Shown: positions 152 to 63,491, counted from the stretch's first letter. The stretch is 64,000 nucleotides of DNA from a virus (IMGVR_UViG_3300046792_000297:1-64000), one strand, 5' to 3'. Notes: generated from the sequence alone by a model not told the origin. Numbers and translations are program-made.

Positions 152-223
152 GGGAAAACAGAGCACGATCGCTATAATTATTATGCCCTAAACGGTTGAA
201 ACGGGGGAGGTTGCGGGTGAGGG

Positions 224-538
224 TTACTGGCCGCCTCGCTTCCGGGCGTAGAAGACCAGCGCGTCGGCCTTGAGCACGTCGACCACGACCGGCGGGAAGT
301 TGGCCGCGTGCAGCGTGTCCAGGTTCTTCTGGGTGGCTGCCGCCTGGAGGGTGGTGCCGGGGTACTGGCGGTAGTCGCCATACATCTCGAACATCACCAT
401 GCCCTGCTTGGCGAATTGGATGTGGGCGCAGGAGCCCAGGCCGCGCTGCATCTTGCGGGTCGAGAGCACCAGTTGCGCCACGCCGTGTTCGTTGTCCAAC
501 TCGGGCATGGCGATGACCTGCTTAGGTTCCTTGGCCAT
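224..538 (-). CDS. hypothetical protein
   Basis: ORF downstream of promoter copy 2, GGAGG upstream. Confidence 0.75.
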   Translation of the reverse strand: MAKEPKQVIAMPELDNEHGVAQLVLSTRKMQRGLGSCAHIQFAKQGMVMFEMYGDYRQYPGTTLQAAATQKNLDTLHAANFPPVVVDVLKADALVFYARKRGGQ

Positions 539-558
539 TTCTTGTCGTTCCTCCATTC

Positions 559-588
559 TTAGTGTAGCACAATTCGGATTGATGTAAA
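559..588 (-). promoter_or_regulatory. repeated early promoter, copy 2
   Basis: TTTACA-TCAATCCGAATTGTGC-TACACT. Confidence 0.85.
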
Positions 589-617
589 CAGCGGGCGGGC
601 GAGTTCCGGCCCGATTG

Positions 618-1391: not shown

Positions 1392-1594
1392 TGCTTGCTC
1401 CTCTTCGGTCGTGCGGCCATCCGGGCCTGGTAGTCTTCGAGCGGCACGTAATGATTATTCAAGACGCGGTTCACGGTGCCGGTCGTGACCTTGAACAGGT
1501 GAGCCAGGTGGCTGGCTCTTACGTTGCGCGTCTTGTCGGCGTACATCCGCCGCAGGTCGGCGCAGTCTTCGCGGGTTAACTTCGGTTTGGCCAT
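1388..1594 (-). CDS. small HTH-like protein
   Basis: ASHLAHLFKVTTGTVNRVL helix-turn-helix pattern; overlaps neighbours. Confidence 0.65.
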   Translation of the reverse strand: MAKPKLTREDCADLRRMYADKTRNVRASHLAHLFKVTTGTVNRVLNNHYVPLEDYQARMAARPKRSKQ

Positions 1595-2860: not shown

Positions 2861-2880
2861 TCGTTCTCCTCAACTCAAGT

Positions 2881-2911: not shown

Positions 2912-2912
2912 G

Positions 2913-3200: not shown

Positions 3201-3207
3201 GGTTTCC

Positions 3208-3570: not shown

Positions 3571-3579
3571 CGGCGGCTC

Positions 3580-4169: not shown

Positions 4170-4299
4170 CAGAAATCGTAGGGAATCGTAAGGAATTCTG
4201 CGCCTGTAAACGATGGAAGGGATAGGCTTTAGCGGCGGCCAGAGCGAACGCGGGCCAGCAGGAGGAGCAGCACGACAAAGAACAGGTTCACCATAATGA

Positions 4300-4722
4300 T
4301 TACTCTGCCTCCAACTCGGCCAGGCCGAAGTCGACGAACTGGGTGTGATAGCCGGGAAAACCCACGCTCACCACGCGCTCGGAAACGATCTCCGTCACCA
4401 CGCCCTTGCGATAGCCCAGCCCGGTTTCGGGATTGAACGCGTAGGGCTCGACGGTGCGAACCTTCGCGCCCAACTTGAGCGGCTTCAGGGCCGCGTGCCG
4501 GATGTAGCTTTTGCCTGCCAGCGGTCGTTTGTCGCCGGGGTAGAACAGCTTGGCGACCTTGGCGAATGCCTCGTCGTGGCTGGCGGCCTCGATGGCGAAG
4601 CTCTCCGTGTTCCAGCCGCCGCGCCGGTCCTGGGCTTCGGTGTGCGACGTGGCGCGGCCCGTCACCAGTCCCTTGTTCTTGGCGCTGCGCCCGTTGGCAA
4701 TCACGCGAATGCGGTACTCCAT
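4300..4722 (-). CDS. hypothetical protein
   Basis: coupled ORF. Confidence 0.7.
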   Translation of the reverse strand: MEYRIRVIANGRSAKNKGLVTGRATSHTEAQDRRGGWNTESFAIEAASHDEAFAKVAKLFYPGDKRPLAGKSYIRHAALKPLKLGAKVRTVEPYAFNPETGLGYRKGVVTEIVSERVVSVGFPGYHTQFVDFGLAELEAE

Positions 4723-6819: not shown

Positions 6820-7854
6820 TCATGGGTAAACTTCCAATTGTCGTTTCAGCACCGGCACGATGCGAGCGACCGCCTGGCGCAGCAGGTACACGCCGCGTTT
6901 ATCCTCGCCGCCGCCAGGCGGAATAGCTCCATCAAGCGGATAGGTGAAGGGCAGCTTAGGTTCGTTCTTGTAGCGCACAAAGGCGGCGCGGCCCGCAGGC
7001 CCGACCAGGTAAGAACTGAGCACCGTGACCGTGCCAGCCTTGAGGTCGATCAGGATACGGCGTTGCTGGTAGCGCAGCCAGGTGCAACCTTTGAGCAGGT
7101 CTGGATCGTTCTCCATGTGTTGACGGCCAAGCTGGGCCACGCATTCCTTCGAGTTTGGATAGTAGGAGTACAGTGTGACGGTAAACTGCTGCTCCTTGCG
7201 ATTGGCAAACCAAGTGGCCCAGCCTTCGGTGGCGACGTAGCTGGTGATAAACAGTTGGATGTCTGGTTCGGCATAGACCGGGATCGGCGCGAACCAGCGA
7301 CAAGGTACTTCGTCGCTGACCAGGTCCGGTCCACCGCCCAGGCCCGGCACCACCAGGCGCATGGCGTCGTCCATGCAGTCTAAGGCCGATTGCGCCTGGA
7401 CAGGTGCCAGCCAGAACAAGGAAAGCAGCAGCATCGCGGCAGCGGCCACCACCTTCTTGACGCGCGGCTGGCGCGGCTTGGTGAGGGCGATCTCCGCGCC
7501 GTACTCGCAGCCGATGCCATCCTTGGCCCACTGGGGCAGCTTGTCGTTCATGCGTTCCTTGCGCTGGCGGCGCAGCCAGGCGGGCGGCTTTTCGAGTTCG
7601 GTCATCACGCCCAAGTACCAGGCGTCGTTGCCGTGCTCGGTGAAGTAGCCGCGCACCTTGGCCCAGCCCAGCCCGTTCATGGTCACGTAGATGCGCTGGC
7701 CGATGGCGGGCAGCGCAAACGGAGCGCTCCACAGCATTTCGGTCCCGCTGGCGTCCAGGTAGACAGCCAACTGCTTGCCCAGCGTATTGGCGCTGGTGCG
7801 GCCCGTGGCTTGGGGCGTGAGAATGAAGAAACGCGGCGCGTGGCTCTGGCTCAT
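6820..7854 (-). CDS. two-part protein with internal signal/TM segment
   Basis: internal KKVVAAAAMLLLSLFWLAPVQAQS. Confidence 0.65.
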   Translation of the reverse strand: MSQSHAPRFFILTPQATGRTSANTLGKQLAVYLDASGTEMLWSAPFALPAIGQRIYVTMNGLGWAKVRGYFTEHGNDAWYLGVMTELEKPPAWLRRQRKERMNDKLPQWAKDGIGCEYGAEIALTKPRQPRVKKVVAAAAMLLLSLFWLAPVQAQSALDCMDDAMRLVVPGLGGGPDLVSDEVPCRWFAPIPVYAEPDIQLFITSYVATEGWATWFANRKEQQFTVTLYSYYPNSKECVAQLGRQHMENDPDLLKGCTWLRYQQRRILIDLKAGTVTVLSSYLVGPAGRAAFVRYKNEPKLPFTYPLDGAIPPGGGEDKRGVYLLRQAVARIVPVLKRQLEVYP

Positions 7855-7859
7855 AATGA

Positions 7860-8486
7860 TTAGTTTCCTTTCTTGCGTTCGTAAATTTCCAGCCGGTCGT
7901 GAATGCCGGAGAACTGATAGAGCGGGACGGTCTGCACCCGCTCGAAGTGCTCGAAGAGGTACTCGTGGAAGGCGTCCGTGCCGGTACAGCCTCCGTCGCC
8001 CTCGCCGACGTAAAGCACGCGGTCGCTTCGGTAGGCTTTCAGCACGTCCTCGATCCATTCGCCTTCGTAATCCGGCCACACGGTGAGCAGGGTGCGGTCG
8101 GGGTACTTCTCGACCGCCGCGACTCCGTCTAGCCGTTCGACTTCCCAGAACTTGGTGAACTGGTACTTGTTCGCCGGGCTCGGGTCGAGATCGGTCGCGA
8201 CTACGTCGGCCCCGGCCTGGCGCAATTCGGAAGCCCAGTAGCCGGTGCCCGCGCCGACTTCGAGCAGCGGCGAGTAGGTGGCAAGCAACTCGACCGTATC
8301 GCGGTCGAGAATGCTGAAGCCGTAGAGTGCGATGAATTCGTGGCGTACCTCGTAGGAGCGGCTATAGTCGCCGGGCCTGTATTCGCCGGGCTGCATGTCA
8401 AAGTAACCGTTCGCCTTGGTCCGCACGACCGCTGGCAGTTGGTCGCGAAGGAATCGCACGGCTTCGGTTTCAGCGATCTCGATCAT
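7860..8486 (-). CDS. class I SAM-dependent methyltransferase-like protein
   Basis: LLEVGAGTGYW motif I; VVATD; YVGEGDGGCTG. Confidence 0.8.
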   Translation of the reverse strand: MIEIAETEAVRFLRDQLPAVVRTKANGYFDMQPGEYRPGDYSRSYEVRHEFIALYGFSILDRDTVELLATYSPLLEVGAGTGYWASELRQAGADVVATDLDPSPANKYQFTKFWEVERLDGVAAVEKYPDRTLLTVWPDYEGEWIEDVLKAYRSDRVLYVGEGDGGCTGTDAFHEYLFEHFERVQTVPLYQFSGIHDRLEIYERKKGN

Positions 8487-12146: not shown

Positions 12147-12172
12147 CTGAATAATGATTATTGGGACCGGAT

Positions 12173-15536: not shown

Positions 15537-15959
15537 TTAGCGGAGGATGCGCCAGGCCGCCTTGACCCGGCGGCGCAGGTAGGGGCAGAGAGCCATCGGC
15601 TTGCCCAGGTGGCAGCGGTTGTCGAACATACGGTGGCCGTGGATCACCAGGTAGTGGCCGGTGATGCAGACGATGTGTTCGCCGGGCGGGGCGGCGTCGT
15701 ACCAGCGGGCCAGCGTGGGCAGCGGCGTGCGGGCGGTCGCCCCGTCCAAGCCTTGCGTGGGCGCGGGCTTGGCGAACACGATTCCGGCCAGCCGCAGCAC
15801 GGCTTCCAGTTGCACGTTGGTCACGCCGTGGATCGAGCGTTTGCCGCTCACCTTGCGCAGCAGCCCGGCGGCATGGTCGGGATCGCTGCGCAGCACGTAG
15901 GCCAGCGCCGCCGGGCCGCAATAATGATTACGCCCGTAGGGGATGGTGTACTCGCTCAT
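15537..15959 (-). CDS. papain-fold (C39-like) peptidase-like protein
   Basis: YCGPAALA...TGHYLV...FDN. Confidence 0.6.
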   Translation of the reverse strand: MSEYTIPYGRNHYCGPAALAYVLRSDPDHAAGLLRKVSGKRSIHGVTNVQLEAVLRLAGIVFAKPAPTQGLDGATARTPLPTLARWYDAAPPGEHIVCITGHYLVIHGHRMFDNRCHLGKPMALCPYLRRRVKAAWRILR

Positions 15960-20717: not shown

Positions 20718-20974
20718 CAATTAAATCAGAGATATTTTACCCCGTAAGCCGTTGAGGGGGTTGGTGTTACGAAATAATGATTATGGACCTGCCCTGGTTG
20801 GGTGGTATAGTATTCCGGTGCCGATGGTGAAGGGCTGGGATACTTCTCCTGAACAGAAAACACTCCCTGCCCACTTGTTCCTCGGCGCTTGGCCTGGGAG
20901 GGCCGTTCTCCGGGAGGGAGCGGTCGAAGCCCGCTGGTTTCACGCCAGCGGGCTTTTCCGTTTAGTATGGCGGC

Positions 20975-23044: not shown

Positions 23045-24794
23045 TGAGTGCCTCCGCGAATTCCTTGTTGAGTTGAATGGTGCCCGAGCCCTCGATCAAC
23101 TCCAGCGTCCGCAGGCGGCTCAGTGCGTTGTTGAACCCGCCGCCGGACGCGGTGTACGCGCTCTCGTGGGCCAGTTCGTCCTTGGTGATCGGGGTGCGCG
23201 GCGCATCGGCCAGCACGCTCAGAATCATGCGCTCGGCCTTGCCCAGCTTCTGCTGCCAGTGGGCCAGCAGCGCCGCGCCGGTCGGCAGCGGCTCCCAGGA
23301 GCCCAGCGCCTCGAATCCCTTGGCGGTCAGGTCGAGCGGGTCGGAGCCGGTCAGCCAGTTGTTCGACCGGCACTTGGAGATGGCGTTGTTGAACCCGCCG
23401 CCGTTGACCGCGTATCCGGCGTAGGCGGCCACCGCCGCCTTGCTGCTCGATCCGCGCTGCGCCAGCACGGTGAGCACGGCACGCTCGGCCTTGCCCATCG
23501 GCACGCCCCGCGTCTGGACGCCGGTCAGCGGCTTCGGGCGGTCACGCTTGACCTCGTGCTGCTCGTTGAGGAAAAAAGTCTTGGGCTTCACGGCAGCCTG
23601 GATAGCCTGGCGGGCCTGCTCGCCCAGCTTAGGCGGGCTCCAATCCTGGTTGCCGACGATGGTGGCCAGCCGCGTCAGCGCGGCCTGCACGCCCACCACT
23701 GCCGTGCTGCACTCGCCGATGGCTTTACCGAACAGCCCTTGCAGGTGCTCGCGGTTGGCCGCCAGGATACGCCCAAGCTCCTGCTCCTGGGCCAGCAGCA
23801 GGGCGTCGCGGTCCAGCATTTCGCCGGTCTGGGCGTGGGCGTCGCCCAGCATTCGCTTCAGTTTGGCGATCTCCGCTCGCAGCTTGGCCGGGTCATCGGC
23901 CTCGGCCTTCTCGATCACTTGCTGCATGTCGGCGCGGAGCGCCTCGACGTCCATCGGGGTGAGTGTGGCCGCCTTGCGCTTCTGTCCCACCTTGGGCGTA
24001 GCCGAAGCGTCGAATGTGGTTTTCTTGTTGAACTGGAAGCGGGCGAACACGCGCAGCCAGGAGGGCGACCACACGTAGCCTTCGCCTTGGGCCAGGCCGG
24101 GCAGCAGGCCCACGATCTCGCGATCCGCTCCCGCTTCCTGCACCCACTCTTCGAGCGCCTTGCGTTCGTGCGTGCCGTTGACCTGGAGGGCGAACAGGCA
24201 CTCCACCTGGGACAGCACTTCCTTGTTGATTGACTGGGGTCGCTGCGAGATCATGCTCGCGCCCACGCCGTAGTTGCGGCCCAGCCGGATGATGTTCTCG
24301 AACGCGCCCAGCATCCGTGCCTCGTCCGGTCCCACACGCTGCGGCGCGAATAGTTGGGCTTCCTCGACGAACAGGTGCACGGCGGACTTCTGGCTCTTCT
24401 TGCGGTGGAAGAATTCTTCCGCGAAGTCGGCGGCGAAGCGTTTGCGCTCGCCCTGGCGGAAGCTGGAAATGTCGAGGATCACCGACACGTCTTTCTCCAC
24501 CAGCAGCCGTGCGATCCGTTGCCCGGCGTCGGGCAGGATGGGCACGTCGCCGTGTTCGCCGCCCACGATGAAGATGTCTTTGCCGCGAGCCCGGCCATCG
24601 GCGGCCACGCGCAGGCCGTACCAGTTGCCCACGGGATCGAGAATAATGATTTGCGCGTGGCGGTCGAGCATCTGCTCGGCCATCAGCCCGGCCAGGTAAG
24701 TCTTGCCGCTCCCCTTGCGTCCGATGAAGCCGAACGTCTGGGTCACGGCGTCGAGTGGTATGCGCAGGTTCTCGGCCAGAGCTAAGTCAGTCAC
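23037..24794 (-). CDS. HerA/FtsK-family ATPase with two C-terminal winged-helix-like repeats
   Basis: GRKGSGKT, ILDPVG, FVEEAQ, GRNYG, SQRP; duplicated (M/L)GKAER...GGGFNNA unit. Confidence 0.88.
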   Translation of the reverse strand: MTDLALAENLRIPLDAVTQTFGFIGRKGSGKTYLAGLMAEQMLDRHAQIIILDPVGNWYGLRVAADGRARGKDIFIVGGEHGDVPILPDAGQRIARLLVEKDVSVILDISSFRQGERKRFAADFAEEFFHRKKSQKSAVHLFVEEAQLFAPQRVGPDEARMLGAFENIIRLGRNYGVGASMISQRPQSINKEVLSQVECLFALQVNGTHERKALEEWVQEAGADREIVGLLPGLAQGEGYVWSPSWLRVFARFQFNKKTTFDASATPKVGQKRKAATLTPMDVEALRADMQQVIEKAEADDPAKLRAEIAKLKRMLGDAHAQTGEMLDRDALLLAQEQELGRILAANREHLQGLFGKAIGECSTAVVGVQAALTRLATIVGNQDWSPPKLGEQARQAIQAAVKPKTFFLNEQHEVKRDRPKPLTGVQTRGVPMGKAERAVLTVLAQRGSSSKAAVAAYAGYAVNGGGFNNAISKCRSNNWLTGSDPLDLTAKGFEALGSWEPLPTGAALLAHWQQKLGKAERMILSVLADAPRTPITKDELAHESAYTASGGGFNNALSRLRTLELIEGSGTIQLNKEFAEALNG

Positions 24795-26682: not shown

Positions 26683-26943
26683 TTAATCGGATTCATGTGT
26701 TGCGGCGACCGGCTTGCGGGTCGGCCACTCCACCTTGTAGCGGCGCGGGCCATCCTTGACGATCTTGAACTTGCGCCCATCCGAGTAGCCCTTGCGCAGG
26801 GCGCGGTAGATGGTGGCCTTGGTGATGCCCAGTTGGGTGGCGGCGGCCATCTTGGAGCCGGTCTGGTGAATCGACCACAGGATGTGATCGAGCGTCAAAT
26901 CGGCCAGAGGCCGGGAAGGCAGTTCGATGAAGTCCTCGCTCAT
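26683..26943 (-). CDS. Fis-type HTH protein
   Basis: GSKMAAATQLGITKATIYR. Confidence 0.8.
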   Translation of the reverse strand: MSEDFIELPSRPLADLTLDHILWSIHQTGSKMAAATQLGITKATIYRALRKGYSDGRKFKIVKDGPRRYKVEWPTRKPVAATHESD

Positions 26944-27848: not shown

Positions 27849-28066
27849 CCCGCACAGGTGGTCGCGCAGGTGGTCGCGAGCAGCAGAAACTTCTCCAGGG
27901 CGGCGATGAAGGCTCGCAGTTCCCGGCGGGGCACGTGAATGGTGATGGCCACGGAGGGCTCTGTCTTACCTTCCTGCTGTTCGATCAGCAGGCGGATGGG
28001 GTCGCTCATGCCGGGCTCGGGTTGAGGCTGGTTTGCAGATGCGGGGGGAACGGGCTTGCGTTTCAT
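27836..28066 (-). CDS. hypothetical protein
   Basis: AGGAG upstream; coupled. Confidence 0.6.
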   Translation of the reverse strand: MKRKPVPPASANQPQPEPGMSDPIRLLIEQQEGKTEPSVAITIHVPRRELRAFIAALEKFLLLATTCATTCAGWCE

Positions 28067-28902
28067 GACTTCTCCTTTCTGCTGGGCACGATCTTGCGGT
28101 AGGCGCGGTGAGCGGTGCGGACGGCATGTTCCCAGCCTGCCTTGTTGGCGGCCCAGAGGTCGACGGCCAGAGCCAGGTTCTCCGAGGCGGCCAGGCGTTC
28201 CAGTTGCGAGTTCTTCTTGGCCGCTGCCGGGCCGGGGTGCTTGGGACGCTTGATTTCCTTCTTGCCTGCCGCCTTGGCTTTGGCGGCGGCTTCCTTGATG
28301 CGGGCGGGAGCCTGTTCGCGGCCCTTGCGGACTTCCTGAATGGCCACCGCCGGGGAAATCTTTATTCCGTCGACGCCCTCGCGGACCATCTGCTTGACCT
28401 CGATGGGGGCCTGGTGGAGTTCGATCCCGTCCTTGACGTGGCGCTGGGCTTTCTTGGGGCTGTAGCCCAGGTGCGGGGCCACGACCTTGGCGATCTGCTC
28501 GATAGTCCAGCCGTAAGCCTGGAGCTTGTCGGCGGTCTTGCCGATCTCCATCTGGGTCAGCGGCAGGCCGTTGTTGGCGGCCAGGCTCTTGGCCAGCGCG
28601 GCGGCCTCGTCGCCCTTGAAGGTGATGGTGGGCAGGTAGACCTTGTTGCCCTCGTCCCACAGTTCCTGGCAGGCCCGCAGACGGCACTCGCCGTCCACCA
28701 GGTACATGGTCTCGCCGTCGATCTGCACGAAGATGGCTTCGTCCACGCCGCGTGCGGTGATCGAACTCTTGAGCCAGTTGATGTGCGCCCGCGCCTGCGG
28801 GCTGCTGGTGTCGCGGCCATTGAAGTCTGGTTTGATCTGGATTTTCCGGGGGTCGACCGCGTAGGCTTCCCACTGCTTCTTTCCCTGCTGGCGTAGCTGC
28901 AT
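28063..28902 (-). CDS. ParB/Srx-like N-terminal domain protein with HTH
   Basis: FNGR...LKSSI..RG...LVDGECRLRA; GWTIEQIAK. Confidence 0.82.
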   Translation of the reverse strand: MQLRQQGKKQWEAYAVDPRKIQIKPDFNGRDTSSPQARAHINWLKSSITARGVDEAIFVQIDGETMYLVDGECRLRACQELWDEGNKVYLPTITFKGDEAAALAKSLAANNGLPLTQMEIGKTADKLQAYGWTIEQIAKVVAPHLGYSPKKAQRHVKDGIELHQAPIEVKQMVREGVDGIKISPAVAIQEVRKGREQAPARIKEAAAKAKAAGKKEIKRPKHPGPAAAKKNSQLERLAASENLALAVDLWAANKAGWEHAVRTAHRAYRKIVPSRKEKS

Positions 28903-28928: not shown

Positions 28929-28958
28929 AGAATAGCGTATCGAAACGATGCGTGTCAA
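28929..28958 (-). promoter_or_regulatory. sigma70-type promoter for the leftward ParB-like operon
   Basis: TTGACA-18 nt-TATTCT. Confidence 0.75.
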
Positions 28959-28987: not shown

Positions 28988-29102
28988 CCGTGGTGCGAGT
29001 TGTGCGCTGCAACCTCCTATGTTTTTAGTGAGTTATGTAATGACAATAATCATTATCGTATTTCCTTTACACACCGAGCGGCGAGTAGTAATGTTTACGC
29101 CT

Positions 29103-33386: not shown

Positions 33387-33504
33387 GGGAAAAGTGTGCA
33401 AAAAGCGGTACAGGTACAAAAAAAATTACGGGCATTAAACACTAGAAACTAATCATTATTCCTTCCAGTGAAACGTTTCCCGCCTGGTAATGAGGAAAAC
33501 GTGT

Positions 33505-37469: not shown

Positions 37470-37730
37470 ATGTCGATCACTCGCCAGTATCTAATCGAGG
37501 TTTCGCTCGATGCGGTCACGCTGCGCCGGGTCGAGGTGACCTCACCCACCGGCATACCGGGCCAGCTTGTCGAGGGCATCTACATTCCGTTGGGCGTGCA
37601 TCCTCCCGACCTCATGCTCAGCTTGCCGCCCACGTCCCTGCCCACCAACAACTGGGTCCGCCTGCGACTGCTCTCGGCGCAGGACGTGCCTACGCCGCTT
37701 AGGATTATTGAGGTTCTCAAGCCGGAATAA
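37470..37730 (+). CDS. hypothetical protein
   Basis: GGAG upstream. Confidence 0.6.
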   Translation: MSITRQYLIEVSLDAVTLRRVEVTSPTGIPGQLVEGIYIPLGVHPPDLMLSLPPTSLPTNNWVRLRLLSAQDVPTPLRIIEVLKPE

Positions 37731-37733
37731 TGA

Positions 37734-37943
37734 TTATTGCGGCCTGCGGACCAGCAGGTTCCACATTTGCTCGGCGTGCCTGGTCGAGGACACCACGCCC
37801 GTGGGCGCGGGCATCATGCCGACACAGTGACCACAACCGCCGCAGTACCATTCTTCGAAGTCCTGTTGCCCGATGGTGAGCGGCTTGCAACCGACCGCCA
37901 TCGGATGGCGACCGCACTTGGGGCACTTGTTGAATAGCGGCAT
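37734..37943 (-). CDS. Lar-like zinc-ribbon protein
   Basis: CPKCG...CGGCG...AEQMWN. Confidence 0.6.
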   Translation of the reverse strand: MPLFNKCPKCGRHPMAVGCKPLTIGQQDFEEWYCGGCGHCVGMMPAPTGVVSSTRHAEQMWNLLVRRPQ

Positions 37944-41660: not shown

Positions 41661-41832
41661 CCCCGAGCGGCTGAAGCGTTACCAGTGGGACCAGGACTCG
41701 CTCACCGTGGCCAGCGTGGGCACGGGCGAGGAAGTCAAGCTCGACCAGCCCAAGGAGGCCAAGAAGGACGACCAGGCCAAGGACCAGGCCATCTTCTCCA
41801 ACTCGCTCGACGTGATGCTGGACGAGGAATAA
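41647..41832 (+). CDS. small acidic protein, putative ART inhibitor, with C-terminal copy of the leader motif
   Basis: overlaps ART stop; GGAGG upstream; ends AKDQAIFSNSLDVMLDEE. Confidence 0.7.
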   Translation: MPTIDPERLKRYQWDQDSLTVASVGTGEEVKLDQPKEAKKDDQAKDQAIFSNSLDVMLDEE

Positions 41833-42752
41833 TGATTAGCTGCCTGATCGCCAACGGCTTGGAAGACTGGACCCTGGCGGTCGACGACTTCAAGGAAGCG
41901 GCGGTTCCGCGCGACGAGTCGGGCAAGTGGACCGGCAAGGGCGGTTCGAGCGGCGAAGCCAAGCCCCTGAACGCGGCGCACAAAGCCTGGGCCACGCGCA
42001 AAGCTAAACAGCAGGCGGCGCAATCGAAGAAGCCGGTCGACTATCTGGCCAAGAAGGTCGGCGGGCAAGGGGGCTCCAATCCGGGCGGGACCTATGAGGG
42101 CAGTGACGGCAAGAAACGCTACGTCAAGTTCTACAAGAACATGGCGCAGGGTCGGGCGGAATGCACGGCGGACACTATCTACAACGACCTGGGCATCGGC
42201 GCACACAAGAGCGACGTGTTCGAGGCGGACGGCAAAGAGGCGTTCGCGGCGGAACTGATCGACGGCGGCGACCTGCTCAAGGATGTGGGCCTGAACAAGG
42301 AGAACGCTCGCGCCATCATGGAAGGCTTCGCGGCAGACGTGCTCATGGCCAACTGGGACAGCGTCGGCCTGGTCAACGACAACATCCTGCTCAAGGATGG
42401 CAAAGCCTACCGCATCGACAACGGGGCCACCTTCACGCACCGCGCGATGGCGTCCAGTCCGCCCAAGCCGGAAGGGCTGCTGCACAAGATCACCGAATGG
42501 GACGGGCTGTTCAACCCCAACATCAACGCGCAGTTCAGCCAGGTCGCCAAGGCCGCCGGATACAAATCGCCCAGCGACATCCCCGACATCAAGGCGCAAG
42601 TGGAGAAGATCGTCAAGCTCCGCGACCAGAGCGGCGGGTGGGACAAGTACCTCCAGGGCAAAGCGCCGTTCCTGTCCGACCAGGAGCGAAAGCAGTATGC
42701 CGGAATGCTGGACAGCCGCACCAAGCTACTGAGGGAGAAAGTCCAGGCGTGA
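41832..42752 (+). CDS. HipA/PI3-PI4-kinase-fold protein with shared leader and KAWATRK
   Basis: GGSNPGG.Y...YVK...AE; D..MANWD...NIL...RIDNG. Confidence 0.75.
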   Translation: MISCLIANGLEDWTLAVDDFKEAAVPRDESGKWTGKGGSSGEAKPLNAAHKAWATRKAKQQAAQSKKPVDYLAKKVGGQGGSNPGGTYEGSDGKKRYVKFYKNMAQGRAECTADTIYNDLGIGAHKSDVFEADGKEAFAAELIDGGDLLKDVGLNKENARAIMEGFAADVLMANWDSVGLVNDNILLKDGKAYRIDNGATFTHRAMASSPPKPEGLLHKITEWDGLFNPNINAQFSQVAKAAGYKSPSDIPDIKAQVEKIVKLRDQSGGWDKYLQGKAPFLSDQERKQYAGMLDSRTKLLREKVQA

Positions 42753-42762
42753 AGGGGTGGCG

Positions 42763-43745: not shown

Positions 43746-43806
43746 TTCCCCTCACATTCTGACCTTCTTCCGGCACCGGGAGAACCTCGACCCACGGAGA
43801 GAGCGC

Positions 43807-45473: not shown

Positions 45474-48400
45474 GGCAGTCGGAATAATGATTTTTGTGCT
45501 GGCGGGGCGGGCGGCGGCTCAGAGCAACCCGCACACCCAGATCGCCTGGCCCGCGAACTGCGACGACAGCAACTTCATGACCTACAACGTGCTCTCGAAT
45601 ACCTGCTTCAATGCCGGATCGACTAAACGTCCCATCGCGCCGCTAGCCAACGTTTCCCGGCCCGCGAGTTCCTCGGCCACCGGCGCGGCCATGCCCCAAC
45701 AGGTGATCGCTTTCTTAGGTAATTCGCTGGTCGCGGGTGACACTGGGAGCACCACCGAATTTTGCAATGAAGCAGGGATAGCTTCCACTAACGGACTTGG
45801 TCCTTTATTTATGGCGGGACACCAGTGCCGCCCGGCAACCAACATCACCGTGGACAGCAGTAACAATGTGACCCTGGCGGTCAACAACGCCGACGGGTAC
45901 TTTCAGAATGGTACGCGCTTCACCGCGTATGGTGGGGCAGGAGTGGATGGCGGATGTCTCTACGATTCCTACATCGTCACCAGTGCCACGACAACGCAGA
46001 TCGTATTCCCCAGTGCGCCCAACACGCCTTGCGCTCCGCTCGCCAGCACTCCGGTGGTCGCGAACAATGTTTTGTTGACCACCAGCCTCCAGAGGTTCGG
46101 CCAAAACGGCGGTTCGCTGGATTCATGGTTTAGCACCGTAGGCAACTGGACCTTTTCCGGCTACAAGACTTGGATTCAAGGAGCAATCGCGGCGGGGCAA
46201 ACCCCGATTACCATCATGCGCGATGCGGGAATCATGACCAATTCCACCCGTATGAGCGCAATGGACTATCGGGCCTGGATGGCCGACCTCATGCCGGTGA
46301 TCGCGGCTATCCAGGGCATTAGTGCTACGAATCCGGCAGGAGAAACAGTTTATGTTTCCAGCTTGCCATTCTACATCGACACCGGGAATCCCGAGGCTTG
46401 CAACACCGCTATGACGGCTTCCAGTACAGCGCCGTGTTCGGGAGGTCAGAACACTGGGGCTGGCGGAGTGTATGTTCCACCCGTGCAGATGCCAGCCGGT
46501 GTGCAATATGTCTTCCCTTATGGGACACCGGGAAGCCAGTTTACAACTCCCGCTACGATCACATCGGGAGCCATCAGCGCGGGAGCCAATACGGTAACGA
46601 TCAATCCGTGTCCGCCTGATCTTTGGGGTGGTCCCGGCGATGTGATTCCCACCGCACTCGATTCGAACGGACTGCTACGCAGTCACGGCAACCTGATCCA
46701 GATGGTGGTTGATTCTGCCGCCTCGGCTGCGCAGGAACTTGTTTCGTTGACCGCGATCATCCCCACGGGAGCAACTGGACTGCATAATTGGCAGACTTGT
46801 CAGGTATCGTTCACTGCCGCTTTCGCTCATGCTGCGAACGCACCGATTTATGCCACGCAGTTTACGGCTGACCAGACCTGGGTGCGGTGGAAGCTGCAAA
46901 TCCCTTATGATGTGGCGGCTGCTTATCCCGGCCACATTGAAGTAATAGACACGCTCACCGCGATGGGGCGACAGGTTGCGAATCCCGGCTGGTGGATAGG
47001 GAATGAGCTTCATCCTGGTCTGGGTGGATACGCCAAGATCGGCAACCGGGAATTCACGGCACTAGCGTCCTATCAGCTTGCGCCCAAGCCTCCACCTACT
47101 CCTGATCCTTTAGCGTTTGATTATGCCACGCACCAAGTCAGCTTGCGAACAGGCGCGATTGACATCAACTTTGATCTCGACGCGGCAACGGCGGCTCGTG
47201 CCTTAGCTCTTGGGCACAATTGCGGTATGTACTACAACAAGTGCGACATAGACCCAGCTATGTTTTATCCCTCTGCCCTCTCGCCCACCATGACCTTCAC
47301 TCACGGTACGCAGTTTGCTCGTATGACGATGGCGATTCAATCGGGGCAGAATTTGAGTGGAGACGGGCAAACGGGCGATTTTCTCTATACCAGTGTTGGG
47401 GGTAGCTGGCAACCAACGACACTAACTGCAATGGGGTTTGTTCCCGCCAGCTTACTGGGTTTCAATTTTACCGGCACCCCCCCTGTGGACATGTCTGGCC
47501 GAGGGGCCATCATGCGTCCCTTCTATGCTGATCCGCTACAAGGAGCGAAGTTTGCCGCGCATCCGATCAGTTATCCGCTGAATGGCACCTATAACCTCAA
47601 GGTGGGCACTTCAACAACGAATAACCTGGTGTTTTCCATTCCCGTCGCTCAGAATCCCGCTGTCATTGGCGGGCAGACTCTAACCTGTTTGCAAATCGAG
47701 ATGCAAGCCGGAGACTGGATTGTCACCGCAGGAAACATTCCCGGTTCACAGGCTACCGCCGCCGGGGTGTCCATCCAGTTGCCGACCGGAAGCTGGAATC
47801 CTCTCACCTGCACCTGGACGGACACCAGCGGAACAAACTACAGCGTCTACAACGGCGTGATGGCTACGCTGGTGCAGCAGTTCAGAGCGCCGGATGCAAC
47901 GTTCAGTCTCGTTACCGCGCAGCAAAAAATACAAACACAAGCACTAACTGCGTTACAGGGCGTTCAATCGCCCGGTACGCCCACTGTTATAGGTGTGGTT
48001 GGAGGAGCATTTACAAGCGCAACTACTGGCGGCAATTGCGCGAATGGAACAGCTTACACTCTAGGTCTGGCTTACATGCCTCTTGGTTGGGGAACGGACT
48101 ACACTCATGCAGGTGCGATTCGCACCGTCTATGCAGTCTATACGCCAACTACCGGTACGACAACGGATGTTGTCGGAATCAATATCACTACAGCAGCGCC
48201 CTTTGGTTACACAACGGTAGCCTATCTGCTTATTGGTGGGACTTATTATGCGTTCGGCAAAGCACCGTCCACAGGTGCAGGTGTGATTACGACAACCTGC
48301 CCAGCAACCGGCGCTGGATTGATTGTGGCCAACACTTATGATAACGGCAGTGTGGGCTTTGTAGGCCCGGCATTCAGTTCGAGCGCCCCCCAGACCACTG

Positions 48401-48651: not shown

Positions 48652-48659
48652 GGACCATT

Positions 48660-50743: not shown

Positions 50744-50909
50744 CGAGGAACTGCCCGAACTGCACTTCGGACGCGCCGACGCGCCGCCGCTCGACTGGAG
50801 GAAGTACAAAGATGATTCCCTGGATGATGACGAGCCGCTTGCGCAAACGCCTGCGAGCACGGTTGCAATCCTCGGCTTCGACCCCCTCGACCTCGACAGC
50901 GACGAATAA
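50712..50909 (+). CDS. small acidic protein, putative topoisomerase partner
   Basis: overlaps topo IB end; DDDE.LAQTP..TVAILGFDP. Confidence 0.7.
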   Translation: MPEPQPQPQADEELPELHFGRADAPPLDWRKYKDDSLDDDEPLAQTPASTVAILGFDPLDLDSDE

Positions 50910-50931
50910 TGATTTTTCCGGGGGTGCGCTC

Positions 50932-54100: not shown

Positions 54101-55905
54101 TCACGGGTGGTGGGTCAAGTTTGTGGGAAGGTGGGATTGGCGGCGCTCTTCATATCGATGGCAGCAACATGAACACTTTCCGCAACACCGGTATTCTGCC
54201 GGGGTCTGGGCTTATTGTTGACAACGGCCACGGGAACATTTTTGAAACGCAGTACGTTGCAGGCGTGCGGCAATATCTGGGGAGGCGTGTTTATGCTGGC
54301 ACTAAGCCTGCCCGGAAGCCAGTTGGTGAGATGGACGGCTCAGCCATCGTGGGCGGCAGTGCGACAACACCTTACTACAGTGCTTCCGATCTGATGACAA
54401 CTTGTTCAGATTGGGCATTTGCCTATTATCCCGGCACAACGGCAGGGTCATGCGTAAGCGATCCGAGCGGGACAGAGTTGCCACACGGTTATTTTGAATC
54501 TGCAACGCCCACGCCTGGCTTTGACATAGTCAATGCTTCGCCGGGTGGTGGCTGGGCGGGAGGCCCACGGTTATTTGGTGGTCATGCGCCTCTGCAAAAG
54601 GTAAGAGTCTACGTGACAGGCCGCTGCGTTGGCGCTGGATGTGCCGCAACGACGCTAGCAACCTACAGAGATTCGCCTACGAGCACGGAGTTCGGCAGAG
54701 CTACCTTGAACTTTACGTCATCGTGGTCAACTCAGTCGTTTCCTGCCGATGCGAGTAACGGTGTAGCGGGAAACATCCCCAACGTAACTATGACCGGTTG
54801 GACCAACACGGGAACAGCTTACGACATAGCGATGATCACCATTCAGCCGATCCCGACGGATACGATCAACGTCACCTATCTGGGCAACACTCCATCGCAA
54901 GCGGCAGCGGCGTTCGGATCGCCTGTGATACTCAGCATGGAGAAGGTGACGACTGGAGTTAGTGTTTTTTCGCTGCCTGATTCTACTTCACCAACAGGAT
55001 TCTCGAATACGGCTACGGCATCTGGCGGTTGGATTTGCTGCACTACTTTTCCGAATGGCACTGGTGTCTATCTTGGTGGAAGGGACTTTCCGACTAGCTA
55101 CGGAGTGTTGCAATGGACGGTGCAGGGTCCATCCGTCTGGACCGATACACTCAATGGTCTTCTGACCAACGTGGCGACCACATGCACCTTGACTACTTTT
55201 AATACTTCAACTTGGCAAGCTAATGGGTACTTCCTCATCGATCAAGAGATTCTTGGCTACACTGGGGCAGTGCCGGGGAGTAATGGATTTACCTGCACAC
55301 GCGGCAACTTCGGAACTATCGCGCAGCAGCACTCTAATGGTGCAGCCGTGTCCAGCGTGGGGACGACAAACTTCCTGACCAAATGCAACAACCTAGATGC
55401 ATCCACCGGGCGTAGCACCGTCGTTCCCATTCTTCCGACATGGCAGCAATATCGGCAAGCATTTGTCGGCACCGCCTGTTCTGGGTACACTCCCGCCTTT
55501 CAGATGTTTGCTGGCACCGGTCCAACGGGACAAACGTTCAAGGTGGCCAGTATCACCATAGAAAGTTTGCAGGGCGTTCTTCCCCAGCCCACCGCCGCCA
55601 ACCAAGTGTTAAGTTCTGGCGCGGTGCTAACTGGCGGCGCGGGGTATGCGTTCAACACGCTGACCACCATGCCCCCAGTTAGGGCCGGAACATGGGCGAT
55701 CTCGGCGGCGACTTCCGCTCCCATCACGTTTGCCCCGGTCATGCTGGCTACACCGACAAGCTGCGCTGTCACGCCCTCCGCCAGCGCCGCCACAACTGGC
55801 ACACCATTCGCGTCTAGTCTCGCGACCACCGGGTTTACGGTCAACGTTCCCACCAGCGGCAGTTTGAGCGGCACCTACCTGTGCGCGATCACCAACGCCT
55901 ACTAA
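51175..55905 (+). CDS. 1576-aa spike/fibre-like protein with signal peptide and pectate-lyase-like beta-helix region
   Basis: MKRILGWTLLLFVCQAALA-Q; TPNLGLNLP...W....N.NF..ID; VKAPPYNAKCD...TDD...LPAG; duplicated SITSWSITGNVAT domain. Confidence 0.8.
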   Translation: MKRILGWTLLLFVCQAALAQMAQTPNLGLNLPPQGYPNWANLNNQNFVTIDAVVGGLQKQWQGTWTSAVTYQPAQIVTWQASSYISITGTNANNQPDLSPGYWAKIGTTAAGAVNELQMNAGGSFAATTGMTYDLTSNTLRAPQVNVSGNIQGVSLKLSGLAPGSALVCTSGTDGTLTNGACSVPPASVAWPPSCTGVYAPATNTCVAVGTAANPAGNVKEVQFNAGGTFGTDSAITIDNSTHTLGSQNVSGSANTVLYVKAPPYNAKCDVHVGGLGDAVITSGTTTYGGFSTADVGKTVKGVSSQANGSVSYVGKIVSWVGGTTTLSPAATITLHYWEWATDDHDSLMAALNDAYAQNVEIQLPAGQCLTSTLVWKGQSFHGSGRGVSYVRGMPGQDVFQMPEYGTSYSITSWSITGNVATFQTTSNNLLAGNVVTLGGFGTSTFFNLQTVTVTSATGTQFVAPITHANGSATEAGFAATGGAFPITSWSITGNVATVQVANNFPAGANITLSRFGTSTFFNAQNVTILAAGLSPTQFSFNFTHANGSATESGLATTQATSIRQFNVHDLSIVIDSTVNAAATAAGGNNTFPYRIGGTFQGMTPFTPPPAPGVPVFGTCGAGGGYADAGGTLVTITCPLTGLPLNLASLEPTWVINAPITVDGAGAAGGVYAGHIQSIVNDGVTSVSGSGGSGMTVGTYPLSFSGGGGSGASGTIAVTNATTYVVLLRVGGAGYTSPPTVTAATGGTPPTFTAAIGTSCAGGTICTVRVDNAIATSVSATTGTWLTAQTPPWYFGNAGIAMPCSGGGACNGVGFSVIRNVNFDQVANGYIGRSHTTGIFTQAQMYGDSFENLVFTQLYGGYIEVQPPAGNLSTADTMSFKDISFYNENFPIMTYNGNDRVINGMNIYQELLLSEGPFFFSRQQALSGYLNWAINSFYIEGGASTNGEWARFQGGPFHMRAASFGGGNPAGSYIEFTGGGSSLWEGGIGGALHIDGSNMNTFRNTGILPGSGLIVDNGHGNIFETQYVAGVRQYLGRRVYAGTKPARKPVGEMDGSAIVGGSATTPYYSASDLMTTCSDWAFAYYPGTTAGSCVSDPSGTELPHGYFESATPTPGFDIVNASPGGGWAGGPRLFGGHAPLQKVRVYVTGRCVGAGCAATTLATYRDSPTSTEFGRATLNFTSSWSTQSFPADASNGVAGNIPNVTMTGWTNTGTAYDIAMITIQPIPTDTINVTYLGNTPSQAAAAFGSPVILSMEKVTTGVSVFSLPDSTSPTGFSNTATASGGWICCTTFPNGTGVYLGGRDFPTSYGVLQWTVQGPSVWTDTLNGLLTNVATTCTLTTFNTSTWQANGYFLIDQEILGYTGAVPGSNGFTCTRGNFGTIAQQHSNGAAVSSVGTTNFLTKCNNLDASTGRSTVVPILPTWQQYRQAFVGTACSGYTPAFQMFAGTGPTGQTFKVASITIESLQGVLPQPTAANQVLSSGAVLTGGAGYAFNTLTTMPPVRAGTWAISAATSAPITFAPVMLATPTSCAVTPSASAATTGTPFASSLATTGFTVNVPTSGSLSGTYLCAITNAY

Positions 55906-55999
55906 TAATGATTATTTTGGCCCTGTTCGCGCTGGCCGTACTCCTGGCGCTCAGCCGTTGGTGGCCCGACCTGTTGAACCCGCTCTGAGGAGAATCGGT

Positions 56000-59447: not shown

Positions 59448-59471
59448 CACCACATTAATCATTGTCGAGTA

Positions 59472-60170: not shown

Positions 60171-61838
60171 ATGCCCAAGTATTACTCCCTCATGCTCAGC
60201 CCCCACATCTCCAAGACGCCCGAGGGCTACCTGATTTGCCGCGACGTGAACATCTGCCGCAGCGGCTTTCAGGAGTACCGGGGCAACGAGTTGAGCCGCT
60301 TCCCCGGCTACGAGCATAGCTGGAACCTGGACCCCGGCCAGACCTACAAGGTCTACCGGCCCAAGGAAGAAGTGCTCAACCCCGACACGATGGCCAGCTT
60401 CGAAGGCAAGACCGTGGTCAACGAGCACCCGGACGGCGACGCGGTCTACATCGACAACGATGGCGAACTGAATTGCGGCCACATCCAGGGCGTGCATCGC
60501 GGGCCGGACCTGCCGCCCAGCGAAGACCTGCCCGAAGGCGCAGTCACCTTGCAGGGCGACCTGCATGTCAAGGACCCGGAACTGGTCGAGAAGATTTGGC
60601 CAGCGGGCGACCCGGAGAACGGAGTCCGCGACATCAGTTGCGGCTACTCACTGAGGCTCAAGCGTCTGGCGGACGGGACGCTTGTCATGACCCACATTCG
60701 CGGGAATCACGTGGCTGTGGTCGAGAAAGGCCGCGCGGGAAGTCTGATCGCTATTCAAGATTCCGCGCCGCAAGCCAAGGCGGAAATCCTGGTTGCGATC
60801 TGCGACTCGGCACCGCCCGAAATCAAACAACAGCGGAGGAAAATCATGACCATCAAAGAATTGATTTTCGGGCGAGGGGTCAAAGCCATGATGCCAGATG
60901 CCAGCCCGGAAGAGGTCAGCGCCGTCCTCAAGGACCTGGAGGATGACAAGAACGGGCACAAGCCTGTAGCCAAGGACTCACTCACCAAACAGGACGAACT
61001 GGCCTCCGAACACCCTCACCGGGTCGCGGCTCATGCGGCGCTCGACCGCTGCATGGACGCTCGCGGGAGCGCGGACGGTATGGGCAAGGACGCCTTCGGC
61101 AAGCCTTCCCATCTGAACCAACTCAAGAAGGAACTGCTCAAGTTCATCGAGGAAGAGGAGGCTGCGGAGGAAACCAAGCCGCCCGGCGAAGAGGGCAAAC
61201 CTGCGCCCGCCACCGCCGCGCCGCCGCCCGCTGCACCACCCGCCGAAGCTGCGCCGCCTGCCAAGCCAGAAGAAGAGGATGCCGCGCCGCCCGAAGAAGC
61301 CAAGCCGGAGATCGAAGAACTGGCCGAAGGCGAAGGCGCGGAGGCGGAAGCTCCGCCGGAGGAAGCCGGTACTGCGCCGCCCGAGGAAGAGAGCGAGGAT
61401 CGCGGGCCGGAAGGCAACGAAGAGCCGCCGGAGGAAGGCGACGAGGAAGAGGAAGAAGCCAACGACGCCGAAGTGACCGAGAAGGGCGAGAGTGTGCTCA
61501 AGCAGGCCAACGATTCAGTGCGGGCCTACATTCGCGCCACCAAGCCGGTGATCGCCGCCATCGTGGCCAAGCCCAAGAGCAAGCGCAGCCCCAAAGAGGT
61601 CCTGATGGTGGACAGCTACAACCGGGCCGTGCGCGGGGTCAATGCGGCGGGTCCGGCCTACCGCGTGCTGGCTAAGGTCAAGGTGCCGCCCCGCATTCCG
61701 GCACTGGCCGTCGACGCCGAGAAGGCTCGCACGGAAGCCAAGGCCGAAACCGATTTGATCGCGAGTTTTTACGAAGGGGTGCCGTGGAATAAGGGCAAGG
61801 AACGCCACGACCTCTATCTCACTACGAAGGGAAAATAA
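60171..61838 (+). CDS. DUF2213 prohead protease fused to acidic scaffold
   Basis: TPEGYL.C, YRP.EEV, SFEGK.V..EHP, ISCGY, GNHVAVV.KGRAG. Confidence 0.92.
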   Translation: MPKYYSLMLSPHISKTPEGYLICRDVNICRSGFQEYRGNELSRFPGYEHSWNLDPGQTYKVYRPKEEVLNPDTMASFEGKTVVNEHPDGDAVYIDNDGELNCGHIQGVHRGPDLPPSEDLPEGAVTLQGDLHVKDPELVEKIWPAGDPENGVRDISCGYSLRLKRLADGTLVMTHIRGNHVAVVEKGRAGSLIAIQDSAPQAKAEILVAICDSAPPEIKQQRRKIMTIKELIFGRGVKAMMPDASPEEVSAVLKDLEDDKNGHKPVAKDSLTKQDELASEHPHRVAAHAALDRCMDARGSADGMGKDAFGKPSHLNQLKKELLKFIEEEEAAEETKPPGEEGKPAPATAAPPPAAPPAEAAPPAKPEEEDAAPPEEAKPEIEELAEGEGAEAEAPPEEAGTAPPEEESEDRGPEGNEEPPEEGDEEEEEANDAEVTEKGESVLKQANDSVRAYIRATKPVIAAIVAKPKSKRSPKEVLMVDSYNRAVRGVNAAGPAYRVLAKVKVPPRIPALAVDAEKARTEAKAETDLIASFYEGVPWNKGKERHDLYLTTKGK

Positions 61839-61841
61839 ACC

Positions 61842-62402
61842 ATGCCCGCAACTGTCATTCCAGTAAAGGGACTCAAACTTGGCTTCGTTGGGAATATCAG
61901 TAATGAGGGCTATTCCCTTCGCACGCCGCGCATGGTCAAGGCCGCCGATCCGAATCCTATCGCGTTCGGTGAGACCGTGACCGTCAACTCCGACAACACC
62001 TACTCCAGCATCAAGAGTTTCGTCGCGGCGGCGGGCACGGTCCTCGCCACCACGCCGCTGGGCATTGCCGTGTCGAACGTGAACATCAACCCGGTCTACG
62101 CCACCACGGGTTCCGGCAACCTGCTCACGGGCGGCGGCAAGTACAACCAGGGCGAGATCGCCGACGTGCTGGTCAAGGGTACGGTGAATGTTTACTGCGC
62201 CAACGGTGCGCCCACCGCCAACGGCAACGTCTACATCCGGGTCGCGCTGAACGGCGCGATTCCCAACGGCGTCATCGGCGGCCTGGAAGCGGCAGCCGAC
62301 GCAGCCAACTCCGTCCTGCTCACCAACCTGAAGTGGAAGACCGGGTACATCGAAGACGATGGCTCTTGCCAGGTCACCATCCTCAACCGCTTCATCCCCT
62401 AA
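61842..62402 (+). CDS. head decoration/cement protein
   Basis: between protease and capsid; I.FG..V...DVLVKG.V.V. Confidence 0.8.
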   Translation: MPATVIPVKGLKLGFVGNISNEGYSLRTPRMVKAADPNPIAFGETVTVNSDNTYSSIKSFVAAAGTVLATTPLGIAVSNVNINPVYATTGSGNLLTGGGKYNQGEIADVLVKGTVNVYCANGAPTANGNVYIRVALNGAIPNGVIGGLEAAADAANSVLLTNLKWKTGYIEDDGSCQVTILNRFIP

Positions 62403-62465
62403 TCGCGGGCAGTAAAAGCGGGCCGCGTTCGCGGTCCGCCACTTCATTGAAGGAGAAACGAAGCA

Positions 62466-63491
62466 ATGACTCCCAAAGAGTATCAGCAGTCGCTTGCTGC
62501 CCTGCGAAGTGGTCAGGTCTTGTCCGATGCCGCGCAAGCGGCCACGGGCCAGACATTCCTGATGGCAGAGTTGAGCAAGCTGGACCCGGTGGTACGGCTA
62601 CCACTGGAGAATTACACCTACCTGCGCGACATTCCGCTGGACAAGGGCGGCGGCTGGGTAATGAACCACATCGCGCACAACGTGGATTTTCGCGGGCCAC
62701 GTGATGCCGGAGCAGGCTCGCAGACCAACGACTCGCGGGTGATCGAGTACAACGTCAACCAGGACACCTGGCCGGTTTATCCCTACCAGGTCCGCATTCG
62801 GATTCCCATCGTGGAGTCCCTGCGCATGGCCCAGGTAGGGCGTTCTCCCCAGGACCTGCTCGACAAGGGCGTCCGCGTCGACTATTCGAAGACGCTCGAC
62901 ACCCGCACCTACCAGGGCTTCCAGGGCGGCGTCAGCGGCGGAACTAATTATTATGGGCTGATCGGCAACCCCGCCGTTACCGTGACCGCGCTGCCCAACA
63001 CCGGCACCGGCTCGACCCTCACCTGGTCGACCAAGAACGCCAGCCAGATTCTGGGCGACTTCAACTTCATGGCGCTCACCATCTGGAACGCGTCCGGCAA
63101 CGCGCCCGGTGCCATGCCCACGCGCTTCCTGGTGCCGCCCACGCAGTGGGTGCTGCTCACCCAGCCGATGGCTGTGGTGGGCGGACCGTCGGGCTACGCG
63201 TCCATCCTCGACTACATCGAGAAGAACTACCTCGGTGCGGCCTTCGGGGTGAAGCCGGAAATCTATCCGCTGCCGGTGTGGCTGGACAACGCCGGGCCGG
63301 GACCGAGCCAGTTGATCATCGCCTACAAGTACGACAAGGACTGCCTGTCGCTGGGCATTCCCCAGGAGATCACCCGCTTCGGCGCTCCGCCGTCCATCGT
63401 GTCGGGCTGCTTCGAGTTCCTCTACCTCGCCAACATCGGCGTGGTCAAGGTGAACCGGCCCTCCACAATAGGCGGATTCTACGGCTGCTGA
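62466..63491 (+). CDS. major capsid protein (DUF2184 type)
   Basis: FL..EL.KLDP...PL...TY.RDI; YGLIGNP; W..K...QIL.D; P...LVPP. Confidence 0.92.
   Translation: MTPKEYQQSLAALRSGQVLSDAAQAATGQTFLMAELSKLDPVVRLPLENYTYLRDIPLDKGGGWVMNHIAHNVDFRGPRDAGAGSQTNDSRVIEYNVNQDTWPVYPYQVRIRIPIVESLRMAQVGRSPQDLLDKGVRVDYSKTLDTRTYQGFQGGVSGGTNYYGLIGNPAVTVTALPNTGTGSTLTWSTKNASQILGDFNFMALTIWNASGNAPGAMPTRFLVPPTQWVLLTQPMAVVGGPSGYASILDYIEKNYLGAAFGVKPEIYPLPVWLDNAGPGPSQLIIAYKYDKDCLSLGIPQEITRFGAPPSIVSGCFEFLYLANIGVVKVNRPSTIGGFYGC

Follow-up and report, generated by a model that had tools for sequence, protein, structure and literature searches.

The stretch of DNA analysed here, hereafter the window, comprises 64,000 nucleotides of a virus genome (IMGVR_UViG_3300046792_000297:1-64000), and it carries both a recurring AT-rich palindrome, AATAAT-N-ATTATT, and a gene for a ParB-like protein that is a candidate reader of that palindrome. 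The window corresponds to bases 1-64000 of a circularly assembled virus record of 103,954 bp with a 127-bp terminal overlap (complete genome 103.8 kb). The guanine-cytosine (GC) content is 62%, and the only public sequencing run that contains DNA of this phage is a soil metagenome, probably its source. From the places where homologues of the ParB-like protein were sampled, our guess at the host is a member of the Acidobacteriota of peat or soil. Genes are directed leftward across 1-29 kb and rightward across 29-82 kb. The annotated products include structural and packaging proteins (portal, large and small terminase, protease, and major head protein), replication proteins (a DnaB-like helicase, a primase-like protein, and a clamp loader), proteins of recombination and DNA ends (RecT, an exonuclease, a Ku-like protein, an ATP-dependent ligase, and an HNH endonuclease), a P-loop ATPase of 585 amino acids (aa), and the 279-aa ParB-like protein. 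The complete genome was searched for tyrosine and serine recombinases (integrases or resolvases), for ParA (PF13614, PF01656, or a KGGxGK[ST] Walker box), and for Fur-family genes (PF01475), and none of these was found. A GenBank search for near-identical phages was likewise empty, no relative was found among the genome contigs searched, and all portal relatives were below 40% identity. Two sets of genomes were used for comparison with the phage under study (G000): a collinear relative, G001 (95.6 kb, 57% GC, nucleotide identity 65-79%), and four complete virus records found via homologues of the ParB-like protein, G002-G005.

ParB-family proteins that clamp DNA with cytidine triphosphate (CTP) act in chromosome and plasmid segregation, long-range silencing (KorB), counter-silencing (VirB), and nucleoid occlusion (Noc). 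The ParB-like protein matches PHROG 1033 (E 2.4e-35), and its homologues carry PF02195 or, among the distant ones, PF17762 or PF08535; a Pfam search with the single sequence gave no match. A profile search matched chains of ParB, Spo0J, and Noc (E 1.5e-9). The AlphaFold model (predicted local distance difference test, pLDDT, 88) combines a ParB fold at the N-terminus with a helical domain for DNA binding and, at the C-terminus, a pair of helices. Among solved structures, the KorB-KorA-DNA complex 8QA9 matches it best (E 1.8e-8, ~21% identity to KorB), followed by ParB, Noc, and Spo0J. Judged from the profile search and this model, the protein is a true ParB-family member, with a predicted CTPase-fold N-domain and a helix-turn-helix (HTH) domain. 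The N-terminus is without a ParA-interaction motif of the LG(K/R)GL type, as that motif is defined in PMC12704722. The lack of ParA, integrase, and resolvase genes makes partition in the classical sense unlikely.

The palindrome is a 13-bp element of 6-1-6 build. Three perfect copies (AATAATGATTATT) begin at 12150, 37726, and 55904, and dinucleotide shuffles gave none. If up to two mismatches to AATAATNATTATT were allowed, the window held 16 matches (15 distinct sites) against 0.16 in the shuffles. In the whole genome, 26 matches were found at this threshold, against an average of 1.5 and at most 6 in codon-preserving shuffles that retained every protein, the codon usage of each gene, and all start and stop codons. 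The same comparison rules out the motif as a mere TAATG stop/start overlap, and of 19 exact copies only two or three have an internal ATG that serves as the start of a real gene. Three further genome copies with three mismatches carry the exact core TAATGATT, which brings the set to 29 sites. All of the coordinates named in a previous sequence-only reading of the window hold the words reported there, but the sites that it placed at 59456, 13285, and 37445 are weak half-sites only. Information is confined to 13-17 bp, with ~0-0.5 bits outside the 13-bp core; a longer repeat, a promoter, or a transposable element of the miniature inverted-repeat type of which the motif would be a part is thereby ruled out. 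A hand count of mismatches across the genome sites shows the two half-sites to be about equally conserved. With conservation limited to 13 bp and equal halves, the motif has the form expected of a site read by a symmetric dimer. The sites in the window are listed below together with the features considered as reader, promoter, or rival reader.

Table. Palindromic sites and associated features in the window
Feature	Coordinates	Strand	Context
Site TATAATTATTATG (2 mismatches)	173..185		~30 bp upstream of early promoter -35
Site CGTAATGATTATT (2 mismatches)	1447..1459		within weakly supported 68-aa open reading frame (ORF)
Weak site GATAATGATTGCC (3 mismatches)	3805..3817		gene start
Site CATAATGATTACT	4292..4304		stop/start junction, minus-strand genes
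Site CATAATGATTAGT	7852..7864		stop/start junction, minus-strand genes
Perfect site	12150..12162		centre ~-46 of early promoter, abutting -35, near ligase gene
Site AATAATGATTACG	15920..15932		30 bp into 5' end of gene
Site AATAATGATTATG	20773..20785		intergenic; ~60 bp upstream of -35 of early promoter variant
Weak site AATAATGATTTGC (3 mismatches)	24642..24654		within 585-aa P-loop ATPase gene
86-aa protein with HTH-like segment (by eye)	26683..26943	minus	rival reader or possible partner
ParB/KorB-like protein, 279 aa; candidate site reader	28063..28902	minus	ParB CTPase-fold N-domain with GECRLRA box, HTH domain, C-terminal helical pair
Predicted sigma-70-like promoter of ParB-like gene	28929..28958	minus	TTGACA-18-TATTCT
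Site AATAATCATTATC	29045..29057		divergent intergenic region; centre ~-129 of predicted promoter of ParB-like gene
Site ACTAATCATTATT	33448..33460		intergenic
Perfect site	37726..37738		overlaps TAA stop
Site AATAATGATTAGC	41828..41840		TAATG stop/start overlap
Site AATAATGATTTTT	45483..45495		probable start of 1054-aa protein
Site AATAATGATTTTT	50905..50917		99 bp into called 111-aa ORF
Perfect site	55904..55916		stop of 1576-aa protein
Site ACTAATTATTATG	62943..62955		within major head protein gene

The distribution of the sites was then compared with simulations. For the exact-core set in the window, the coefficient of variation (CV) of the gaps is 0.30 (P = 5e-6), and the run of 12 consecutive gaps of 3.56-5.42 kb was never seen in 20,000 simulations. 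For the genome-wide set with up to two mismatches, the mean gap is 3,993 bp with a CV of 0.40, a value reached in none of 100,000 simulations, whether sites were placed uniformly or only at gene junctions and ends. No gap exceeds 7,039 bp, although simulated genomes had a longest gap of 14,187 bp on average (P = 1.4e-4). The sites therefore form a real, statistically robust, and evenly spaced lattice, as the sequence-only reading had supposed, and the pattern is stronger than stated there; it is non-random, extends over the whole genome, and is blind to strand and gene module. The series runs on outside the window. Beyond 56 kb it continues through the structural genes in weaker copies. The motif and its even spacing are retained in G001, which has 19 sites with up to two mismatches (CV 0.51, P = 0.001), most of them at positions other than those in G000; an exception kept in both phages is the site that abuts the -35 element of the early promoter near the ligase gene (12150 in G000, 21250 in G001).

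Orientation along the genome bears on whether the sites could instead be places where a phage endonuclease, such as the HNH enzyme encoded at genome positions 93686-94276, cuts or nicks the DNA, as at the localised single-strand interruptions of T5-like, LUZ24/tf-like, and phiKMV-type phages, or serve as recombination or priming signals. The exact core TAATGATT lies on the plus strand at 15 of its 19 copies in G000, whatever the gene direction, as nicking sites might, and the phage encodes a DNA ligase and a Ku-like protein in addition to the HNH endonuclease. This bias is reversed in the collinear G001, however, with 4 plus and 10 minus copies, so the orientation of the core does not follow from a process with polarity along the genome, nicking and priming included, and a strand-polar signal (a nick, Chi-like, or priming site) was rejected. 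The site is also symmetric within noise in a hand count, and the HNH gene is not common to the phages with other palindromes described below; we regard such processing as very improbable. The central base of the palindrome shows this bias in G000, where a hand count over the sites gave 18 G to 5 C on the plus strand, with G in both the leftward and the rightward gene arm, and its direction is the opposite in G001. Concerted evolution of the sites is a guess at the cause.

The sequence-only reading had also stressed that the palindrome occurs inside genes. This is true for eight of the 29 sites, which lie deep inside genes, including that for the major head protein, but the remaining 21 are at junctions or intergenic, even though deep coding sequence makes up 86% of the genome (P = 1e-12). 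Many of the junction sites supply a TAA stop or an ATG start. Such placement would suit an RNA-level signal, in which the AU-rich junction word would be an RNase E-type processing site or an element of translational coupling or occlusion that overlaps stops, starts, and ribosome-binding sites, and in G003, which has a palindrome of different sequence, a TTTGGAG end of the motif often lies 7-12 nucleotides (nt) ahead of a start codon and resembles a Shine-Dalgarno sequence. Even spacing over 104 kb and sites upstream of promoters and between divergent genes would be unexpected for a signal of this kind, however, and pairing within the AATAAT form would be limited to five A-U pairs around a 3-nt loop, a structure judged by eye to be unstable. 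Moreover, the palindrome is kept exactly whichever strand is transcribed, and the eight sites deep inside genes do not fit either. An RNA-level role is thus improbable.

The palindrome was next considered in light of the ParB-like gene. When all proteins of G000 were searched against G002-G005 with tblastn, the ParB-like gene was the only one common to all four (E 1e-30 to 1e-68); even at E 0.05, all other genes were absent or matched only as noise. Three of these four otherwise unrelated phages carry a dispersed 6-1-6 palindrome of their own with a different sequence, namely TTCCAAA-N-TTTGGAA in G003 (23-25 copies), GTCCAAA-W-TTTGGAC in G004 (8-9 copies), and TGACAG-S-CTGTCA in G002 (6-9 copies). 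Spacing is even in G004 as well (CV 0.48, P 0.02), and short gaps are too few in G003 (P 0.003). A further 30 metagenome contigs were recruited via the ParB-like protein. In nine of them TCCAAA-W-TTTGGA is located 33-61 bp upstream of the parB-like start, and the longer contigs have 2-5 copies each. An AATAAT-type site overlaps the parB-like start codon in G001, L047, and L048. Sites at or near the gene's own promoter, where autoregulation would place them, are therefore present in these three, in the nine TCCAAA-type contigs, and in G000 (~-129). In a maximum-likelihood tree of the ParB-like proteins, the AATAAT-type proteins group in a single clade with support of 100/100, set off by a long stem (0.46), and the TCCAAA-type proteins are paraphyletic and look ancestral. 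No repeated palindrome was recognised in an outgroup clade with a short HTH, of which G005 is the one whole genome scanned. This ParB clade is thus linked with dispersed 6-1-6 palindromes across unrelated phages. As a side observation, the TTTGGAG motif end in G003 (L025-L029; for example at 28406, 30612, 35123, and 47263) doubles as a Shine-Dalgarno sequence in parallel with the AATAAT form in G000, which doubles as TAA stops and ATG starts.

The different palindromes of the ParB-sharing phages also bear on a host regulator of the Fur, PerR, or Zur family, which might bind the sites for titration or for metal-responsive control. In Bacillus subtilis, the 7-1-7 boxes of Fur, PerR, and Zur have the core ATAAT-N-ATTAT in common, and the present palindrome contains that core, with the site at 29045 reading AATAATCATTATC. 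The sequence-only reading had pointed to this resemblance, but conservation stops at the 13-bp 6-1-6 core: the outer 7-1-7 positions, a conserved T/A in true boxes, are without information, and A/T instead of the discriminating G/C stands at position 6 from the centre. Neither the even spacing nor the placement at junctions resembles the operator logic of metal-regulated promoters, and the phage has no Fur gene. Because phages that share only the ParB-like gene have 6-1-6 palindromes of unrelated and non-Fur-like sequence (TCCAAA-W-TTTGGA or TGACAG-S-CTGTCA), a host Fur protein would not explain them, and we find this explanation scarcely credible. Of the candidate binders that the sequence-only reading had listed, the ParB-like protein is favoured and a host Fur-family protein is not supported.

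A second protein of the phage could be the reader. If another phage-encoded dimeric protein read the sites, they could form a genome-wide repressor or roadblock system like the stoperators of Cluster A mycobacteriophages, and the ParB-like gene would be merely linked to them. The candidates are the 86-aa protein, which has no family match, and a HicB-HTH protein (34157-34585). The stoperators, read by the L5 repressor gp71, are also numerous 13-bp sites in short intergenic regions that co-evolve with their reader (described in part in PMC4351075), and most sites here lie in short intergenic junctions. However, stoperators are asymmetric, are oriented with transcription, and belong to temperate phages with an immunity repressor, whereas the sites here are palindromic with a central base that ignores the direction of transcription, and neither an integrase nor any other sign of lysogeny was seen in the phage. 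No small-protein family was detectably common to all three motif types, and the 6-1-6 build that the three motifs share points to one reader family. We therefore consider a different reader unlikely.

Several observations nevertheless weigh against the ParB-like protein as the reader. The 86-aa protein is common only to the AATAAT-type loci (G000, G001, and L045/L046), with its gene directly downstream of parB in L045/L046, and the TCCAAA-type loci share a different small protein of 59 aa encoded just upstream of parB. The association between motif and ParB is correlative, as the relatives were themselves found through ParB. G005 has a ParB-like homologue, but a scan of its whole genome revealed no dispersed array, and the same is true of Curvibacter phage PCA1 and Salmonella phage 9NA, which have distant homologues; 9NA has only local clusters of TAACAC-type repeats. 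A symmetric dimer leaves the strand bias of the central base unexplained. In the protein itself, the CTP box reads GECRLRA and not GERRxRA, with Cys in place of the first Arg but the second and third Arg intact, and the ENLQR motif reads ANNGL with an invariant Asn; these alterations make nucleotide binding uncertain. Finally, no alignment column in the HTH region follows motif type by separating the AATAAT-type from the TCCAAA-type proteins, and even with a common TCCAAA site, proteins differ widely in the putative recognition helix. KorB makes its specificity contacts outside the HTH, and the uninformative HTH columns therefore neither exclude nor support the ParB-like protein as reader. The fixed differences between the AATAAT and TCCAAA types are in the C-terminal helices (residues 237-273), with softer candidates at residues 168, 190, 191, and 201. 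The C-terminal helical pair (residues 225-279; window 28063-28230, minus strand) exists in two unrelated versions that track motif type, and in L049/L050 an N-terminal part closest to the AATAAT clade is combined with a TCCAAA-type C-terminus and TCCAAA sites, which hints at domain shuffling.

The closest known parallel is KorB of the IncP-1 plasmid RK2, which carries 12 KorB operators (OB) on 60 kb. The two systems are alike in having a ParB-family protein with a CTPase-fold N-domain and an HTH (KorB being the best solved fold match), and in dispersed operator copies at about one per 4-5 kb. In both, part of the sites precede a promoter by tens to ~170 bp, and the others have no promoter nearby. 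The OB core TTTAGCGGCTAAA is also a 13-bp 6-1-6 palindrome, and CTP-bound KorB slides up to 1.5 kb to promoters (PMC11790492). Unlike RK2, the present genome is that of a phage without sign of lysogeny and not a plasmid, it has no ParA/IncC partner and no recognised KorA, its sites are statistically even and mostly in stop/start junctions, and its protein has the altered CTP box and ~21% identity to KorB. Scattered palindromic sites read by an orphan or specialised ParB-family protein also occur elsewhere: Noc-binding sites (NBS) are tens of kb apart on the bacterial chromosome and serve nucleoid occlusion, and the plasmid-prophage N15 has four dispersed centromere sites along with a ParA-type partner.

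On balance, and with a modest lean, we read the palindromes as loading or operator sites of the phage's orphan KorB-like ParB protein. By analogy with KorB on RK2, we infer that a ParB-like dimer would bind each palindrome, close into a clamp in a probably nucleotide-dependent manner, and slide onto the neighbouring DNA. As sites recur every ~4 kb, every base of the genome would be within ~3.5 kb of one at which clamps load. Given a reach like that of KorB, this spacing would place the whole chromosome, including its early promoters, within clamp range. These strong promoters, of a highly conserved sigma-70-type, number ~13 copies of TTTACATCAATCTGATTCGTGCTATTCTATA or close variants (minus-strand reading) on the minus strand at window positions 100-20720 and at genome position 99689, and they divide the leftward arm into short operons. 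Promoter control had been set aside in the sequence-only reading, but a site is located 30-170 bp upstream at four of the ~13 early promoters and another at ~-129 of the predicted ParB-like promoter, so that long-range promoter silencing of the KorB type is a live function. The most likely outcome of clamp loading would be genome-wide transcriptional control, in the form of silencing or timing of host-polymerase promoters; a role in coating or organising the phage DNA could apply in addition or instead. More broadly, it is quite possible, if short of probable, that a phage without sign of lysogeny covers its entire chromosome by means of a partner-less ParB/KorB-like clamp and an even lattice of loading sites, as a genome-wide switch of host-polymerase transcription or a protective or organising coat, and that the gene moves between unrelated backbones, each of which evolves its own lattice, with the palindrome switched at least twice.

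According to the accessible part of a 2025 survey, orphan ParB genes are common in phages, where their targets and roles are largely unknown, and many orphan ParB-fold proteins of phages and mobile elements are described there with their target arrays unnamed (PMC12704722). The system presented here supplies a defined 13-bp site, a defined protein, and three natural specificity variants, and its spacing rule suggests coverage by sliding. No published description of evenly spaced ParB-type arrays in phages was found in the searchable literature, the comparable layout described being that of plasmid RK2. If the reading is correct, a virus can tile its own genome with a clamp-loading lattice, and dispersed dyad repeats of unknown function would be explained, such as those of Cluster O mycobacteriophages. 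These phages, which include Corndog, offer the closest phage counterpart described so far, dispersed 17-bp dyad repeats to which PMC4351075 assigns no function. As in G000, dozens of copies of one short palindrome lie between and inside genes with no meaningful orientation, but the build is 7-3-7 and not 6-1-6. We confirmed 34 copies in the Corndog sequence, which are unevenly spaced overall (CV 1.06), with crowding toward the right end. Distant homology relates Corndog gp90 to the ParB-like protein (E 3e-6); no link between the repeats and this protein is drawn in PMC4351075.

Other features of the genome were noted in passing. The Ku-like DNA-end-binding protein and the ATP-dependent DNA ligase are encoded side by side (9307-10146 and 10458-11768, both minus strand) as a pair resembling that of non-homologous end joining, and both are kept in G001; a Ku-like protein is also encoded by the Cluster O mycobacteriophages, which have dispersed dyad repeats. 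Outside the window, a second ParB-fold protein of 232 aa is encoded at genome positions 90536-91234 on the plus strand (L044:6536-7234). It is of the type with a nuclease- or methyltransferase-associated N-domain, is 77% identical in G001, and is not common to the phages with other palindromes. The region at ~40040-48860 is a block replaced by ~1.4 kb in G001, that is, a variable cargo region between the portal and the later head genes, and it contains an ADP-ribosyltransferase/protease-like gene, kinase-like genes, and the gene for the 1054-aa protein. The HicB-HTH protein, encoded on the minus strand, is a HicB-like antitoxin domain (PF15919, E 2.8e-9) fused to an HTH; a 49-aa ORF on that strand immediately precedes it, and the two may form a HicAB-type pair. 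Immediately behind the gene for the 1576-aa protein, the ATG within the perfect site at 55904 opens a 26-codon ORF (55908-55988, plus strand) with a GC content at third codon positions of 0.81, whose hydrophobic product (MIILALFALAVLLAL...) is possibly a small membrane protein.

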